Origin: a virus
Taxonomy: Duplodnaviria > Caudoviricetes
Virus record (IMG/VR): IMGVR_UViG_3300049135_000018
Location: 1 to 28,937 of that record
Strand: one strand, 5' to 3'
Length of the DNA stretch: 28,937 nucleotides
Shown here: positions 1,843-8,836 of the stretch, piece after piece
Layout of the letters: the number at the start of each line of letters is the position of its first letter
How positions within the stretch are numbered: position 1 is the first letter of the stretch
Notes under the pieces: generated by a model
Databases searched by the model: none
What the model was told of the DNA's origin: nothing
Seen by the model: only the letters and a program-made list of their open reading frames with translations
Position numbers and translations under genes: made by a program

Positions 1843-4800
1843 TTAGCTCCCCCCTTCGGGTGATACGTAGGTTTCGCCGGGCGATAAGCTGTAGCTAACG
1901 CCAGGCGTGGCCATGACGATCACCCGTCCATCGGAGTTGCCCGGCACCGTCACGGTCAGCCCCACCACGCCCTGGATAACGTTGTGCGTATCTTGGCGAG
2001 GCACGGTGATGTTGTTGTGTTGCGAAATAGCACTGATGTCGGTGATGGCATTGCCGGTTATCTTCTCGGTGCCGACGATCAGATCCTTCACTTGGATGCT
2101 CTGCGAGATGATTTCCTCGGCCGCCAGGTGCGTGGCCTTGATCTCGCCGGCGACAATCTGCTCTGCCCGGATCGCGCCCGCCGCCACCTTGCCAAAGGTT
2201 ACGCTGTTGGCGGCCAGTTTGTCCGTGGTGATGGCATTGGCCGCGATTACCTCGGCCTGCACGCTGTTGGTCCGCAACTGCCCGCCACTGATCTCCGTGA
2301 CACCGCCAGGCGTCCAGTCTGCCACCTCCGTCGCGTTGGCCGGCGCACGGCCGATCATCGTCTTGGAGAAGAACAGGTAGGGGTCGTTCTGCGACGTACC
2401 CGTCATCACCAACCGCAGCACCGCCAGCACCGCCGTGGCCGGGACGGTGCCGATGATGGAGTGGGAGGCAAAGGCATTATCTTCCGTGCCACCGAGCGGT
2501 GATGTCGTTGGCGTGCTGGACAGGCCGCCGACCTGAGCAAAGAAGCCGTCCAGGAAAACGACGTCCAGCCGCCCCGAGCATCGGTGCGTGCCGAGTAGTG
2601 CCCTCGCCTGGATCTTCTCGCCAGCCACCACCGGGATGCCGGGCTGCCCCGTGTCCGGCGTCCAGTCCGTGAACGCGCCCTGGCCCGAGTTGATCGCGCT
2701 TGGTACATGGAGATACCCGCCGCCGATTGCGCGCGGCACCCAGGTTTGCAGCCCATTTGCCAGCGCAGAACCGAGCGTCGCGGACGGAGAACCGCCGTAC
2801 TGCGACGCCACCCACCCGTCCGTGGCCCGAGTGAGACAGCTATTCCAGATCAGGTTGCCGCCTCCGACCGATAGCTTTTCGGTCGTCACCGCGCCGCCCG
2901 CAATCTTCCCTGCCACGACCGACCCGGCGGCCAGCTTCGGTGTCGAGATTGCGCCGTCAGTAATCTGAGTATCGGTGATCTGCCCGGCAAGTTTCGCCGC
3001 CGCCAAACTTTCGATCTGGTCAGAAGTCAGCGTACCGCCCGGCCCAAGCGCCTGCACGGTCGGCACCCACTGACCACCGACGCGGGTATAAAGCCTGTTG
3101 TCCAGCGCGTTGACCGCAACCGTCCCGTCATCGGCAACAGCCGACAGGTTCGGAATAATCACAACCGGCTTGATGCCTTGGGCGAACTTGGCCGTGTTGA
3201 TGATGCCGTCGCCTATGTCATCGACCAGCAGGACGCTGGACGTTGCGTTGACCGGCCCGACATAGGCCGACAGGTTGCCGCTTCGGTCACGCGACCGCAG
3301 CCAGTACCAACGCTGCGTGGATGGCGGCAGGCCGGTGCGGATGAACCCGCTGCCAGATGACTGCCCGACATAGTATCGGCCGGAAGTGCTGTTTATCGTG
3401 TTTTCGTACACCTCCACCGCCGCGAAATCGAGCGCGGTTGGCAGCGTCCATGAGAGACTGACACCACGCAGGATGCCGGTCGCGGTGATGAGGGTCGGGA
3501 GGCCCGGCGCCTCGGTGTCGGGTGCGCCTGTACCATCAACCGCGGCCGTCCACTGGCTGCGGGCAAGCGATGCCACGGCACGAACGCGCACGTTGTAGGT
3601 CGTGCCAACCATCACAGGCGAGATCAGCGCGCGGTTCGTATCCGCGTTGACCTGTATCGTGTTCCAGTCGCCGTCGCCGCCGCCACTCACGCGCCACGCC
3701 ACTTCATGCGCGGTCACAAAGGCATGGCTGGACGGCACCCACTCAATCAGCAGGGCCGGCACAACCGCACCGTCACCCTGAAGCGCAGTGGACGGCGAGA
3801 CGGTCACGCCAGTCGGCGCAGGAATGTCAATCGGGCTGATGAGCGTATTTTCGGGGTTGTCGCCGTCGGGGATGAACTTGTCATATAGCCACGCATAGGC
3901 CGCAGCGACTTCCTCTTGTAGCGTCGCAGTGACGGCCGCGCTTGTCGGGTCGATCTCAAACGCGGTGATGCGGAATGCTTTGTTGGACCAGCCGAGATCC
4001 GGCACGGTCAGGCTCACCACCTGCCAGCAGCAGAGCGAAACCCACTCGTAGCGCAACGGAACCTTGACGACGACCGGGTTGCGCGAACGCAGCAGCATCT
4101 GCCGCGCAAGCCGCTGCGCCTGTGTGCGATCCGTGACGAACGGCAGGTCGATCTGCTTAGGCTGCTCGCCACCGTCGGCAGCAACCGCGGCATCGTCGCG
4201 CATCTGGCCGAACTCTGCGGCCTGGTAGAAATTTTCGGGCGAGACGAACGTGCCGCCGATGACATTAAACATCTCGGCACGCGGCGGACGCGTCTGCACC
4301 TGTATCGGCCCGGCCGGGTCGGACAGGTCTAGCGAGGCAGACGGCGCCGTGTACGCGCCGCCATAGAGCCGATATTGGCCCATGATGTAGACTAGTGAGC
4401 CAGCACCAGCCGACAGCATAGCTTCGGAAATGTCTATGGGCTTTTCGTCCAGCCCAAACGAGCCGTTCAGCCTGTAGCGCGGCTGCGCCTCGGTGCCGGC
4501 TTCGTTCAGCGAAACGGCCTCATCAGACAGATTAGCAGCCGCGATAAAGCTGGCATCGTCAATCTCGGCGGCCGTCGCATCCATACCGAATGGTGAGGTG
4601 AGATAATCGCGGACGCAGAGCGCCCAGTTGTCCGTCCAGCCGGCGATGCCGGTACGCGGGTCAACGATGTCCTTCTTGCCGCGGACCAGCGCGGTAACGT
4701 TCGGGACACCCGAGAATGTGTTGCGGCTGTAGTACAGGCTCACGCGAATGTAAGTGCAGCCGCGGAGAACGTGGGCACCAGACCAGCCATCCGGGGAAAC

Positions 4801-5277
4801 GCCAGCAAGGCCAAGGTCGCCCTCGGTCTGGTCGCCCAGGAACTTCGTGATGGCGACTTGGTTTGCGTACTTCCCAACCGTGACGGCGCCCGTCACAGGG
4901 TCAACCGGCACCTCATCCTCGTTGATCCAGAACCGGTCAATGGACTCGCACGGGTGCCCCGCGAGCACGATCACCATATAAAGCTGCGCCTGATCGGGAC
5001 CAGCCGAACACACGTAAACAATCGAGCCGCCAACGCGAGCCGTGCCATAGATGACACGGCGAGGCGCGATGGGCGCGCGAATGGATTGCTTGTTGTCTGC
5101 CGCCTTGCTGGCGCTGGTCGCCTTGGCGGGCCTGTTCAATCCCAAGGCCGCGCTGATGCCGTAGGAAACGACTGCGCCAACCACAGCGCCGATGATGGTG
5201 CCTGCGACGCCGCCGATTGCGGCGCTTACGGCAGCGGATGCGGCGAAGGCCACAACGGCGACGACCAGTGCGGGCAT
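1843..5277 (-). CDS. Central tail-tip / host-specificity protein (lambda J-like) with FN3 domains
   Basis: PRRVIYGTARVGG, NWALCVRDYL, FN3-like YNVRVRAV and WYWLRSRDRSGNLS, AITTDKLAANSV repeats, carbohydrate-binding-like segment. Start chosen at MPALVV. Confidence 0.9.
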   Translation of the reverse strand: MPALVVAVVAFAASAAVSAAIGGVAGTIIGAVVGAVVSYGISAALGLNRPAKATSASKAADNKQSIRAPIAPRRVIYGTARVGGSIVYVCSAGPDQAQLYMVIVLAGHPCESIDRFWINEDEVPVDPVTGAVTVGKYANQVAITKFLGDQTEGDLGLAGVSPDGWSGAHVLRGCTYIRVSLYYSRNTFSGVPNVTALVRGKKDIVDPRTGIAGWTDNWALCVRDYLTSPFGMDATAAEIDDASFIAAANLSDEAVSLNEAGTEAQPRYRLNGSFGLDEKPIDISEAMLSAGAGSLVYIMGQYRLYGGAYTAPSASLDLSDPAGPIQVQTRPPRAEMFNVIGGTFVSPENFYQAAEFGQMRDDAAVAADGGEQPKQIDLPFVTDRTQAQRLARQMLLRSRNPVVVKVPLRYEWVSLCCWQVVSLTVPDLGWSNKAFRITAFEIDPTSAAVTATLQEEVAAAYAWLYDKFIPDGDNPENTLISPIDIPAPTGVTVSPSTALQGDGAVVPALLIEWVPSSHAFVTAHEVAWRVSGGGDGDWNTIQVNADTNRALISPVMVGTTYNVRVRAVASLARSQWTAAVDGTGAPDTEAPGLPTLITATGILRGVSLSWTLPTALDFAAVEVYENTINSTSGRYYVGQSSGSGFIRTGLPPSTQRWYWLRSRDRSGNLSAYVGPVNATSSVLLVDDIGDGIINTAKFAQGIKPVVIIPNLSAVADDGTVAVNALDNRLYTRVGGQWVPTVQALGPGGTLTSDQIESLAAAKLAGQITDTQITDGAISTPKLAAGSVVAGKIAGGAVTTEKLSVGGGNLIWNSCLTRATDGWVASQYGGSPSATLGSALANGLQTWVPRAIGGGYLHVPSAINSGQGAFTDWTPDTGQPGIPVVAGEKIQARALLGTHRCSGRLDVVFLDGFFAQVGGLSSTPTTSPLGGTEDNAFASHSIIGTVPATAVLAVLRLVMTGTSQNDPYLFFSKTMIGRAPANATEVADWTPGGVTEISGGQLRTNSVQAEVIAANAITTDKLAANSVTFGKVAAGAIRAEQIVAGEIKATHLAAEEIISQSIQVKDLIVGTEKITGNAITDISAISQHNNITVPRQDTHNVIQGVVGLTVTVPGNSDGRVIVMATPGVSYSLSPGETYVSPEGGS

Positions 5278-5355
5278 GCGTGATGCTCCCGGTCCCGCTG
5301 GCATTGCCTGCGGCGACGGTGATATGATCCCCGTTCGGAATGAACGGAGGATGCG

Positions 5356-5715
5356 ATGCGAGTTGTGGTGTTTGCTCTGATCGCCCTGGCCGGGTGCTCA
5401 AGCGCCACGTTGATTGACCCGCCAGATGGCGGCTACGCAGGCATTAAGGCCACTCGGCCCATGCGTGTGCCTCACGCCTTTTCAAGCGTGTGGGAGGTTC
5501 CCGTTGGGACGGTGCTTGTTGCTGATCGACGCAACAGCCAAGGGCTGCCCCTGTATTGCGGGCAAGTCTCCCTTGGAGATGCGGTTATTCGGCAGTCTGA
5601 GTTTGTCTGCGCCACATACAGAAATGGCGTGCTTGGCATGCGTGCCAATCAGGCGTTTTCCAGCCCACCTTTCGCAGTCCCACCCGGCGCCATCGAAGAA
5701 ATCCGCATACCCTAG
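5356..5715 (+). CDS. Lipoprotein (moron; possible superinfection-exclusion factor)
   Basis: MRVVVFALIALAGC lipobox; GGAGG RBS upstream; opposite strand to the structural operon. Confidence 0.75.
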   Translation: MRVVVFALIALAGCSSATLIDPPDGGYAGIKATRPMRVPHAFSSVWEVPVGTVLVADRRNSQGLPLYCGQVSLGDAVIRQSEFVCATYRNGVLGMRANQAFSSPPFAVPPGAIEEIRIP

Positions 5716-5720
5716 ACATG

Positions 5721-5750
5721 GAAAGGACGCCCCTTTCAGGACGCCCTTTC
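5721..5750 (-). terminator. 13-bp hairpin with GAAA tetraloop (3' end of the putative guide RNA; possibly a bidirectional terminator)
   Basis: Minus strand GAAAGGGCGTCCT-GAAA-GGGGCGTCCTTTC. The three non-Watson-Crick pairs are G.U on the minus-strand RNA. It lies between convergent genes. Confidence 0.7.
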
Positions 5751-5829
5751 ACCCCTGCCATACCTTGCCAAGCCGTGCCATGCCAAGCCGGAACACGCCT
5801 TGCCATGCCGAGGCCCGCCTCGGTTTACC
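5750..5829 (-). repeat. Phased pentamer array GGY-NN
   Basis: Minus strand: GGTAA ACCGA GGCGG GCCTC GGCAT GGCAA GGCGT GTTCC GGCTT GGCAT GGCAC GGCTT GGCAA GGTAT GGCAG GGGTG. Strict 5-nt register; 12 of 16 units start with GGY. Confidence 0.9.
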
Positions 5830-5834
5830 GACGG

Positions 5835-6404
5835 TCAGCTAGCGACTGAGAACCTCCCAAATCGCGGACGCCAATCGCCGATCCCTACTTGCTCTCCTGC
5901 CACGACCAGGAAGTTTCGCACGTCCCTGGCGTTCAGCAATGAGGGCAAAAACTTGACTTCGACAGATGCCGCCCACTCGTCGAAGTGAGGGCGGGTCCGC
6001 ATCACGCGGCCCGTTCCAACCTTTACGGCCACACGCAGGCGGAAGCGTTCATCTTCCCATAGTTCTTTAGGGTCGCGCGGCCCCACGTACTCCAATGTTG
6101 AGTTCCGCTCGACCAATAGCCCAGCTTTGGCGGCAGGTCCGCGCTTCTCTTTCATGGCGCCACGGATCATGGCTGCCTCAAGCATCTGCCATGGAATTAC
6201 CGGGCCATCTTTGTCCACGTAAAGCCCGCCCAGCCACTCCCGGCGAGCGACTTCCTCAAGGTCCGCGTCAGTCTTCTTCCGCTTGCCTGTGATCTCCGCC
6301 ACTGCCTTCGAAAAGCGATTCGCTGGGTCTGCCAACTGGCCGTTGTGGAACAGCACGGGACCCGCTCCGGTGATGCGGAAGGTCAAGGTCTGGTAGCCGC
6401 TCAC
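5835..6404 (-). CDS. Stand-alone RAMP/Cas7-like RNA-binding protein (Vipr-like)
   Basis: 189 aa from GTG with GGAGG RBS. RAMP-like motifs: first strand TLTFRITGAGPVLFHN, PVIPWQMLEAAM (cf. PxIPGSSLKG) and C-terminal G-rich loop GIGDWRPRFGRF. Confidence 0.75.
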   Translation of the reverse strand: MSGYQTLTFRITGAGPVLFHNGQLADPANRFSKAVAEITGKRKKTDADLEEVARREWLGGLYVDKDGPVIPWQMLEAAMIRGAMKEKRGPAAKAGLLVERNSTLEYVGPRDPKELWEDERFRLRVAVKVGTGRVMRTRPHFDEWAASVEVKFLPSLLNARDVRNFLVVAGEQVGIGDWRPRFGRFSVAS

Positions 6405-6693
6405 GCGCCACCTCCAAGGTTCCAAACCTGGGGGAATGTGCGGCGGCTATCATACTCACCCGTGCGTACCTCTCGCCCCGAAGCCGCGACGTAATCAGGT
6501 CGTGGCACTGGTTGCACACCGTCGTCAGCGCATCCAAGCAGTCCAAATCCCACCTGCCGCGCGGCGGATACCTTCGGTGGTGAACCTCCAACCCGTCCGG
6601 TGTGTCGCATAGCCGGCATGTCCCATCCCGCAAGAGCGCCTGCTGCCGAAGCATCCGCCATCCTGCGGACGCGATGTATTGCTCGTAGGTCAT
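6268..6693 (-). CDS. HNH-family (McrA-like) endonuclease
   Basis: YIASAGWRMLRQQALLRDGTCRLC...LEVHH...LTTVCNQCH: CxxC / HH / CxxCH zinc-HNH layout. Confidence 0.8.
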   Translation of the reverse strand: MTYEQYIASAGWRMLRQQALLRDGTCRLCDTPDGLEVHHRRYPPRGRWDLDCLDALTTVCNQCHDLITSRLRGERYARVSMIAAAHSPRFGTLEVARERLPDLDLPHHRSGSRAVPQRPVGRPSESLFEGSGGDHRQAEED

Positions 6694-6705
6694 TTTGAGG
6701 TCGCA

Positions 6706-7116
6706 CTATACGGCCACTTTTCCAGCCAGCGCCAGCACATCCCGCGCCAGCGAACACGCAACCGCGTCGCCCTCGTCCGGCGAGCCATCCTCGAAGTAGC
6801 TGTACTGATCCAGAACGAACGCGGCTTTCGCCCGGCAGCCCGCCATGGTCCGCGCTGGCGTGGCGGCAATTGCCGCCTGGTGTGCGTGTCCATGCGGTGC
6901 CAGGACATCACACTCCGCCAGGAGGCTGGCCGGCCAGCCGCCCGGCGTATCCATCCAAGGATCGGTCAGAGCATTCATGGCGGCGTCGTGCGCCTGGTAT
7001 GCGACGCAGAGGCCGATCAGTCGGGCATCCGGGTTGGCTGCGGCCGCAGACTGGCCACCCAAGGCGGCCAGCGTAGCAGCAGCGCCGGCCAGCGACCGGC
7101 GGGACAGGGCGGGCAT
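6706..7116 (-). CDS. Hypothetical protein with twin-arginine-like N-terminus
   Basis: MPALSRRSLAGAAATLAALGG...ATPARTMAGCRAKA; TGATG coupling to the BRO gene. Confidence 0.65.
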   Translation of the reverse strand: MPALSRRSLAGAAATLAALGGQSAAAANPDARLIGLCVAYQAHDAAMNALTDPWMDTPGGWPASLLAECDVLAPHGHAHQAAIAATPARTMAGCRAKAAFVLDQYSYFEDGSPDEGDAVACSLARDVLALAGKVAV

Positions 7117-7706
7117 CAGTGCGTCCCCTGCCCGTTCTGCATCGCCGGGCTGACGGTGATGGTGACGCTGCCCATGCCGGGCGGTGTCGGGCTGTCCAGA
7201 ATGTCGGTCTGGCGCAGCGCGTGCGCCATGGCCGGCACCCAATCCAGCCCGAGCTTCGCCCAGAGCTGCGCTCCGGCCCGCTCCCCGAAGGCGCGGATAG
7301 CGGTGTTCACCTTCCGCAGCTTCAGGCCATCAGGCGTCTGCGGCTCCATGTCCTCATCCGGCGCCGGCGCTTCGTATCCGCCGGTCTGGCGGATCGCCGG
7401 GAGGACCTCGCCGGTGACCCACTTGCGGAACCGATGAGCCACCGTGCCGGGCTTGGTCGCGTCCCGGCTTCGGAGAACCAGGGTGTAGAGGCCGCCCTCG
7501 GATACACAGTTGGCCTCGCCCTGACGCCCTATGTTGAACATAGCCCGTTCGTCGTCGTCTAGCGCCTCCGCCGCCTGGGTCGGGTTCTTGATCTCCAGCA
7601 CCCGGCAGACATCCGCTACTACGAACCACGGCGCGCTGTCCCGATCGACCACACGCACCATTGCTTCCCCCTCGAACAGGAAGGGGGTAATCTTCATCTC
7701 TGTCAT
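7116..7706 (-). CDS. BRO-N domain phage antirepressor
   Basis: PFLFEGEAMVRVV...PWFVVADVCRVLEI...SEGGLYTLVLRS...FRKWVTGEVLPAIRQTGGY. Confidence 0.93.
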   Translation of the reverse strand: MTEMKITPFLFEGEAMVRVVDRDSAPWFVVADVCRVLEIKNPTQAAEALDDDERAMFNIGRQGEANCVSEGGLYTLVLRSRDATKPGTVAHRFRKWVTGEVLPAIRQTGGYEAPAPDEDMEPQTPDGLKLRKVNTAIRAFGERAGAQLWAKLGLDWVPAMAHALRQTDILDSPTPPGMGSVTITVSPAMQNGQGTH

Positions 7707-7780
7707 CTGCTGAGTGTCCTCTCAGTTGATGGTGTAGGGCACGCCTGCCAGGGCGAGCCCGGTGTTAGCCGGCGGCGGGG

Positions 7781-7975
7781 TTAGGCCTGTGAAGCTTCCC
7801 CCGCCGCCGGTGCGCCGCCCGAGGGGCGGCTGGATTCGGCACTGCGCCGCGCTGCATTCAGCAGCGCCACCACCTCACCGTTCATGCTCCGAACATTCTG
7901 CTCCGCCTGCTTGCGGAGCCATTCCTTCAGGTCCTCCGGCAGCCTGAAGCGAACCTGGAGATCACTGCTTGCCAT
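7781..7975 (-). CDS. Arc-family ribbon-helix-helix repressor
   Basis: QVRFRLPEDLKEWLRKQAEQNVRSMNGEVV; AAAGGAG RBS before MASS. Confidence 0.88.
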   Translation of the reverse strand: MASSDLQVRFRLPEDLKEWLRKQAEQNVRSMNGEVVALLNAARRSAESSRPSGGAPAAGEASQA

Positions 7976-7984
7976 GCGCTCCTT

Positions 7985-8064
7985 TCGATGGCCCGTTGTG
8001 GGCCACGGCATTTGGCCCATTTTGGTCCATATCCGTCAAGCACTATTTTGGCCCATAGTGAGCC
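7985..8064. promoter_or_regulatory. Divergent promoter/operator region between the two Arc genes
   Basis: Repeated TTTGGCCCAT (8011, 8047) and TTTGGTCCAT (8021), variants near 7988-8005, and a minus-strand TTGACG at 8034-8039. Confidence 0.65.
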
Positions 8065-8376
8065 ATGGTTTCAGACGACCACATGATGCGGGTCCGCATG
8101 TCGGACGAACTCCGCGCCCGCATTGCCGAGGCGGCTAAGGCGAACAGCCGCTCCATGAACGCGGAGATTGTGCACAGACTGGAGCAGAGCTTCCCGCCGT
8201 CCACAGAGGCGCCGCCGCCCTCGCCGGGGACCGAGAAGCCCGCCCCGTCCCAGGAGGAAGTGGAGCGGATGCAGCGATGGATTGCCTACCTGAGGGATAT
8301 CGAAGCGCGGATTGCGAAAATGGACGCACAGACACGGGCGGCTGTTAACGACCCGCCGCCCAAGCCCGCCCCATAA
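8065..8376 (+). CDS. Arc/Mnt-family repressor
   Basis: MMRVRMSDELRARIAEAAKANSRSMNAEIVHRLEQSF. Confidence 0.92.
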   Translation: MVSDDHMMRVRMSDELRARIAEAAKANSRSMNAEIVHRLEQSFPPSTEAPPPSPGTEKPAPSQEEVERMQRWIAYLRDIEARIAKMDAQTRAAVNDPPPKPAP

Positions 8377-8410
8377 CTCCACCGGTCCACCGTCCGCCAG
8401 AGCGCCTGCC

Positions 8411-8836
8411 CTAAACCGCCCAGGCACGCACCGCGCACCGCAGAGGCGCGAACCGCAGCCCGTCCAGGGACGGTGCGGCAATGCCGTCGCCGGCAACAAT
8501 GCCGACCACATGCCGGTTGCCCAGTTTCATTAGGCACCAGTCGCCGCGTTGCGCCATCAGCGGCGGGATTTCCGTAGCGCCGAACTCGGACATTGCCGCT
8601 GCAACCGCGGCCTCGATCCCGCCGCGCGCGTCTAGCAACTCGTCCAGTTCCTCATCCGTCGCGTAATCGGCTTCCGCCAGCCATGGGGCTGGATGCCGGC
8701 CGGTCAGTGCCTCGGTAACGGAACACGCGAACAGGCCGCAGTCATGCACGCCGCTCTCAAAGTAGCGCCCGCGCGCATCGTCCAGGCATTGCGCCAGGCG
8801 TTCCGGCCAGTCGGGATGACGCTGCCTAATCAACAT
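8411..8836 (-). CDS. NlpC/P60-like tail assembly protein (DUF6950-like)
   Basis: RHPDWPERL...FESGVHDCGLFA...AQRGD...RAWAV. Confidence 0.85.
   Translation of the reverse strand: MLIRQRHPDWPERLAQCLDDARGRYFESGVHDCGLFACSVTEALTGRHPAPWLAEADYATDEELDELLDARGGIEAAVAAAMSEFGATEIPPLMAQRGDWCLMKLGNRHVVGIVAGDGIAAPSLDGLRFAPLRCAVRAWAV

Follow-up and report, generated by a model that had tools for sequence, protein, structure and literature searches.

Gene content of the locus

The window, by which we mean the whole stretch of DNA analysed, is an entire virus record, 28,937 bases long; its terminase, head and tail genes place the locus in a phage, a location in keeping with the phage or provirus setting of VIPR systems. 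The features that concern us lie on and beside its tail-tip gene:

1843 to 5304, minus strand: J, a tail-tip (J-like central tail fibre) gene (PF13550; phrog_5616, phrog_31)
4237 to 4272, plus strand: site nearly matched by the guide when every third base is skipped (19/24 nt)
5305 to 8410, no strand assigned: tail-operon insertion with the VIPR cassette, a Bro-N antirepressor, two Arc-like genes and ORFs without assignment (flanking genes adjacent in L087, L088 and L097)
5708 to 5754, minus strand: predicted vrRNA 3′ tail, GGG-led, with a 12-13 bp hairpin (fold prediction)
5755 to 5819, minus strand: vrRNA repeat tract, units 3 to 15 (GGY in 11 of 13 units)
5835 to 6404, minus strand: vipr, a 189-aa RAMP-like protein (PDB 36pp, E 3.3e-27; phrog_4652)
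6268 to 6693, minus strand: HNH-like accessory gene, a vap candidate (HNH PHROGs, best E 5e-8; Pfam HNH under cut-off)

The vipr gene begins with GTG, has GGAGG upstream, and encodes a protein that matches SUSP1 Vipr (PDB 36pp) over residues 4-185, which supplies the RAMP-like Vipr protein of a VIPR system. Our searches returned 852 Vipr homologues among 1002 candidates, and because the nearest named relatives are from Roseomonas and Azospirillum, we infer that the carrier is probably an alphaproteobacterial phage. The GGY-reading residues H17, R138, D177, W178 and R179 (SUSP1 numbering) are all kept, four of them invariant in 119 of 119 homologues, and the DNA-clamp residue R39 is kept as well. 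At two other positions K33 of SUSP1 aligns to A, and K82 to M with a neighbouring lysine; according to the available text of the structural report, both lysines are required for repression in SUSP1 (10.64898/2026.04.26.720927). The same changes occur in 102 and 69 of the 119 homologues, respectively, and are therefore a trait of the clade and not a lesion of this copy.

Directly upstream, the HNH-like ORF overlaps the vipr start, and its homologues adjoin vipr in related loci; it stands in the place of the accessory vap gene of VIPR systems. Overlaps of about 100-140 bases between an HNH-like gene and the vipr start are seen in the window (6268-6404) and in two related loci (L007:644-771 and L008:10001-10095). 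What we take to be the HNH asparagine position is occupied by alanine in the window and in L007; L008 has asparagine there, and many others have aspartate, so that nuclease activity of the predicted protein is uncertain. A single-sequence structure model of it was uninformative (pLDDT 41).

The VIPR cassette sits within a 3.1 kb insertion between J and a gene that directly adjoins J in L087, L088 and L097. The same insertion holds, at 7119-8376, the Bro-N antirepressor and the two Arc-like genes, which are divergent. A further ORF of 119 aa (5356-5715, plus strand) lies directly upstream of J and converges on the vrRNA tail; it has no Pfam or PHROG match, carries what we take to be a lipoprotein-like signal peptide, and could be an exclusion protein.

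Guide array and predicted vrRNA

Read on the minus strand from 5829 to 5755, the region next to vipr forms 15 five-base units in GGY/NN register, with GGY in 12 of the 15, and it is the only such array in the 28,937-base window, bar one weak six-unit run within a coding gene. The repeat array itself starts 16 nt past the vipr stop and comprises 13 units (5819-5755), which falls within the 9-16 GGY/NN units adjoining vipr by which VIPR arrays are recognised. The GGY scaffold is missing from unit 2, and that of unit 4 is degenerate. Unit 15 is likely a constant end unit rather than guide, because the last dinucleotide starts with A in 39 of 47 GGG-tailed arrays of related loci. This contig carries a single guide.

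The structured 3′ tail of VIPR systems has its counterpart in a predicted, strand-specific hairpin: the calculated fold reaches -25 kcal/mol (z -4.13, equalled by 0 of 200 shuffles) and is stable on the minus strand only (plus strand z -1.24). Comparable GGG-led tails are present in related loci. We found no CRISPR-like repeats in the whole window (longest period 22) or in 4800-7000, and no sigma-70 promoter-like site in 5200-8500. By this anatomy, which fits the published definition (10.64898/2026.04.26.720920), the locus is, on sequence grounds, a VIPR system.

Two smaller elements lie around the start of the array. A 13-base stretch between the vipr stop and the array (5821-5833, minus strand) also occurs after the arrays in L082 and L086, and is possibly a conserved RNA element. 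A short perfect inverted repeat over units 2-4 (5808-5823) was spotted by eye and was not chosen by the computed fold; if it forms, the working guide would begin at unit 5.

The guide matches the resident J gene

Published VIPR guides are read with a one-base skip, align the skipped base with the wobble position, and have targets in competing phages (10.64898/2026.04.26.720920). As described in the available text of the structural report, Vipr protomers coat the RNA one per unit and hide GGY, and the NN dinucleotides pair with one DNA strand while every third base is flipped out (10.64898/2026.04.26.720927).

We scanned the window with four skip lengths, four orders and both strands. Apart from the array itself, the best site was 4237-4272 on the plus strand, and the next best scored 16/24. 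There the twelve units at 5819-5760 match 9 of 12 dinucleotides and 19/24 nt, the last ten units match 17/20 nt (4243-4272), and the five tail-proximal units match 10/10 (4258-4272). The site corresponds to J residues 345-356, a conserved motif of the J family, and the skipped base falls on codon position 3 throughout, in the frame of the 1843-5304 ORF. All three mismatches within the last ten units oppose a guide U to a plus-strand C, and so would pair as rU.dG with the minus strand; at unit 4 both letters are true mismatches, and at the extension of the site the flanking units 1, 2 and 15 do not match. Paired in this way, the guide would lie on the minus strand, the coding strand of J. The first-pass annotation had picked out this match by eye, including the nine dinucleotides, the 17/20 over ten units, the constant wobble skip, the exclusively rU.dG mismatches and the non-matching flanks, and every one of these particulars held.

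The comparison with shuffled guides that it had proposed gave the following. For twelve units, a score of 19 turned up once in 2000 unit permutations and once in 2000 nucleotide shuffles; for ten units, the observed score was reached by 2 of 2000 permutations and 0 of 2000 nucleotide shuffles, and for 13 units by 13 of 2000 permutations. When the best sub-window of all 15 units was allowed, 18 and 21 of 2000 did as well under two scoring schemes, which corrects P for the choice of units to about 0.01. All 15 units taken together (19/30) are not significant (252 and 138 of 2000). Only the one-base skip in guide order yields a significant site, in computational agreement with the wobble-position skip of VIPR systems. 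The other skip lengths and reversed orders were discarded, with no site above 15/24 apart from the array itself. We regard the match between guide and J as confirmed, real and not due to chance.

The guide fits the J family where the resident copy diverges

We scored the guide against 159 J homologues. Its best family-level site is the same motif, with a mean of 17.35/24 compared with a permuted maximum of 15.67 (0 of 5000 permuted guides), these protein-based scores being upper bounds. At the three units mismatched to self, the guide specifies K/N, I/M and D/E, residues found in 33, 48 and 110 of the 159 homologues, whereas the self residues G, V and S are found in 2, 83 and 18; the G at unit 9 is one change from R, the common residue of the family (108/159). 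At units 14, 11 and 10 the guide and the self copy share I/M, V and I/M, which are found in 9, 2 and 9 of the 159, and no homologue has all three or matches all five tail-proximal units. The guide is thus tied to the lineage of the resident J, yet family-typical where the resident copy has diverged.

Search for target alleles in other phages

We searched for alleles that fit the guide better than the resident copy does. The stricter pattern, in which the three self-mismatched units are fixed to the guide letters, returned nine matches in viral contigs, eight of them in J at the homologous motif and six at 21/24; one permuted pattern returned a single match, outside J. Looser patterns gave one match in species genomes, in the J of a Cupriavidus prophage (21/24), and 28 in metagenomes, 13 of them in J, with the best J allele at 22/24 in L119; two non-J matches also score 22/24. 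In these pattern searches scores of at least 18 follow by construction, the relaxed positions were picked once the family consensus had been seen, and several matches are duplicates. The foreign J proteins with pattern matches are 25-49% identical to the resident J. The self copy matches all ten tail-proximal letters, whereas each of the foreign alleles fails at two or more of them. On the last ten units, most foreign J alleles tie with the 17/20 of the self copy and one reaches 18/20.

More exacting patterns returned nothing that could serve as a target. The exact 12-unit pattern had no match in viral contigs, hybrids taking guide or self letters had none in viral contigs or metagenomes, and blastn of 3600-6700 against annotated phages found no match. 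The exact nine-unit pattern gave six matches, none in J, which we treated as chance. Across the viral contigs, metagenomes, annotated phages and genome samples searched, neither a close sister phage nor an allele at 23/24 or 24/24 came up. Peptide words retrieved J relatives from one locus, L087 (17/24), J in plasmids was represented by 22 records, all below 60% identity, and samples of 401 genomes from one order gave 24 distant J-like matches at 24-33% identity; the databases searched contain no J above about 57% identity to the resident one. The suggestion that the guide is directed at the J of a related competitor therefore stands in part: better-matching J alleles do exist in other phages, up to 22/24, but neither a close sister nor the perfect 24/24 target came to light in the viral contigs and metagenomes.

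Recurrence in related VIPR phages

Of 102 viral loci that carry related Vipr genes we used the best 80, took 90 distinct ten-unit guides from them and scored these over 1.67 million bases. Scores of at least 18/20 at a one-base skip were reached by 5 of the 90 guides compared with 1 of 270 permuted ones; the corresponding counts were 1/90 with no skip, 0/90 with a two-base skip and 3/90 with a three-base skip, the last of which are probably the array copies themselves. Among the 22 top-ranked rows, six guides fit a foreign site better than the homologous self site (19 versus 16, 19 versus 15, 19 versus 15, 18 versus 15, 17 versus 14 and 17 versus 14) and a seventh ties at 17, with the reservations that the loci are not independent, that the foreign score is a maximum over many loci, and that site homology was read by eye from peptides. 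The six guides match genes for terminase large subunits, for a portal and for a head-tail joining protein. A self score of 17/20 occurs in only 1 of the 90 related guides, in its own fetched locus, so that the self site of the window lies at the top of the range.

Several of these loci merit mention on their own. In the small VIPR phages L066, L083, L037, L035/L060, L017 and L019, the guides fit a sister's terminase, portal or head-tail joining gene above their own copy. In L052, L058, L061 and L065 the guide matches the head-tail joining gene, which begins immediately past the guide's own tail, and at L061:1744-1780 nine consecutive units match the self site perfectly and in codon register; this set would be a stronger candidate for self-targeting than the window. 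The GGY/NN tracts at L008:10576-11090 are very long: they run to 20-31 units, against the 9-16 given for vrRNAs.

Probable kin targeting and its alternatives

We propose that the VIPR guide probably silences the J allele of a closely related competing phage, to which the carrier's own copy is mismatched. What the sequence itself shows is the Vipr homology, the anatomy of array and hairpin, a gapped match in codon register, and agreement of the guide with the J family. Published VIPR work describes how Vipr protomers bind each GGY, how the NN pairs read double-stranded DNA with every third base skipped, and how this binding represses transcription. Here a vrRNA would be made from the vipr transcript, and the Vipr-vrRNA complex would read the coding strand of J and repress J. 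Because the guide shares three rare residues with the resident J, the target is likely a close sister allele; it would reside in the same host and combine the M, V and I of the lineage with K/N, I/M and D/E. Differing from it at three amino acids, the self copy would be bound weakly enough to be tolerated. Points against this reading are the non-significant 15-unit match, the lack of a sister at 23-24/24, the distance of the foreign J genes and their frequent tie with self over the last ten units, and the A and M at the K33 and K82 positions, although these are clade-wide; on balance we consider kin targeting probable.

It is somewhat unlikely that the arrangement is instead a relic of self-conflict, in which either the cassette arrived from an element aimed at the lineage of the resident phage or an ancestral self J supplied the guide sequence, after which amino-acid changes let the resident J escape; such a history requires no competitor today. 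This history would agree with the position of the cassette in the 3.1 kb insertion inside the tail operon, with the three rare residues shared by guide and self and the five tail-proximal units that 0 of 159 homologues match, and with the rarity of the self G at unit 9 (2/159). That G, however, need not be an escape, given its distance of one change from the common R, and the better-on-sister pattern in six guides of related phages fits ongoing kin conflict. The missing sister allele would also suit a relic, although its absence says little, since J proteins in the databases searched do not exceed about 57% identity. We also think it unlikely that the guide binds its own J through the three rU.dG wobbles to dampen or delay tail-tip expression, because selection on self would not be expected to leave family-consensus residues in the guide exactly where self differs. 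The features that invite such self-regulation are the 17/20 score in the last ten units, with mismatches that are all wobble-compatible and five perfect tail-proximal units, the assembly of the Vipr filament from the tail end (10.64898/2026.04.26.720927, available text), the degenerate scaffold of the truly mismatched unit 4, and a self score equalled in its fetched locus by only one of the 90 related guides. Against these, three mismatches that are all transitions are unremarkable, the available published text is silent on whether VIPR tolerates rU.dG, and an active HNH partner would make self-binding harmful. We are similarly doubtful that one guide does both, tuning its own tail through rU.dG pairs and a perfect tail-proximal seed while shutting down sisters, and so driving amino-acid change in the J motif.

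Two further readings separate the match from the resident lineage. The target may be the J of a distant, unrelated phage or the tail gene of a satellite, with the high self score due to conservation of the motif alone; this appears improbable, as it does not account for the rare residues that guide and self have in common at three units (9, 2 and 9 of 159), even though alleles at 21-22/24 occur in phages whose J is 25-49% identical, the family as a whole already averages 17.35/24, and SUSP1 guides hit a satellite with homologous structural genes (10.64898/2026.04.26.720920). Least credible of all, and barely so, is that the guide has another target and its match to J is a coincidence. The self-mismatched units independently fit the J family, and patterns made from the guide letters retrieve J genes, which outweighs for us a corrected probability of about 0.01 per window when many windows were scanned and a 15-unit match that is not significant.

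The locus offers a natural test case for how VIPR separates self from near-self, with a self site at 85% over ten units and wobble-only mismatches beside foreign alleles that match there. It puts the tolerance of VIPR for mismatches and wobbles within direct experimental reach, and this bears on the use of VIPR as a programmable repressor. Together with the six similar guides in related phages, it points to VIPR being deployed among close relatives, with shared packaging and tail genes as targets.

Comparison with known systems

The locus resembles the VIPR systems of SUSP1 and of Pseudomonas fulva prophages in its RAMP-like Vipr, its 9-16 GGY/NN units, structured 3′ tail, accessory gene and location in a phage, and also in the one-base wobble skip and targets in other phages (10.64898/2026.04.26.720920). 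It differs from them in having only one guide in this contig, an HNH-like accessory gene and a hairpin tail, and in a target that is a homologue of the carrier's own essential tail gene, with a self site above 80% over ten units. In the P. fulva clade and in types III and V no self-match at 80% or more is reported (10.64898/2026.04.26.720920); the self site here stands at 79% over twelve units and 85% over ten, so that its comparison with that cut-off depends on the true guide length. In the available preprint texts, including 10.64898/2026.10.21.760802, we found no description of a vrRNA that matches a tail gene of the phage carrying it; their supplements may list such targets.

Guides of the SUSP1 family score lower on self than on rivals (10.64898/2026.10.15.759431, available text), and their solo and vrRNA-targeting vrRNAs share with the present guide both this ranking and wobble-aligned footprints on conserved codons. 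As far as that text describes them, these self-avoiding guides aim at vrRNA or vipr sequences or at satellites, whereas the gene matched here is a structural one shared with the carrier; the satellite targeted by SUSP1 guides has homologous structural genes (10.64898/2026.04.26.720920). At the protein level, H17, R138, D177, W178, R179 and the clamp residue R39 are conserved with the SUSP1 Vipr structure PDB 36pp (10.64898/2026.04.26.720927, available text), unlike the K33 and K82 positions, which hold A and M as in most of this clade. With class 1 CRISPR-Cas effectors (the Cas5/6/7 RAMPs), the system has in common the RAMP fold family and RNA-guided recognition (10.64898/2026.04.26.720920); it departs from them in its five-base repeat with gapped pairing, and our repeat searches showed nothing of CRISPR type next to vipr. 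Since earlier work has described the gapped code, its skip of the wobble base and the targeting of one phage by another, the locus is a further example of VIPR. What goes beyond the available preprint texts is the probable kin targeting of a structural gene that carrier and target share, together with a self site that is unusually close to the guide.
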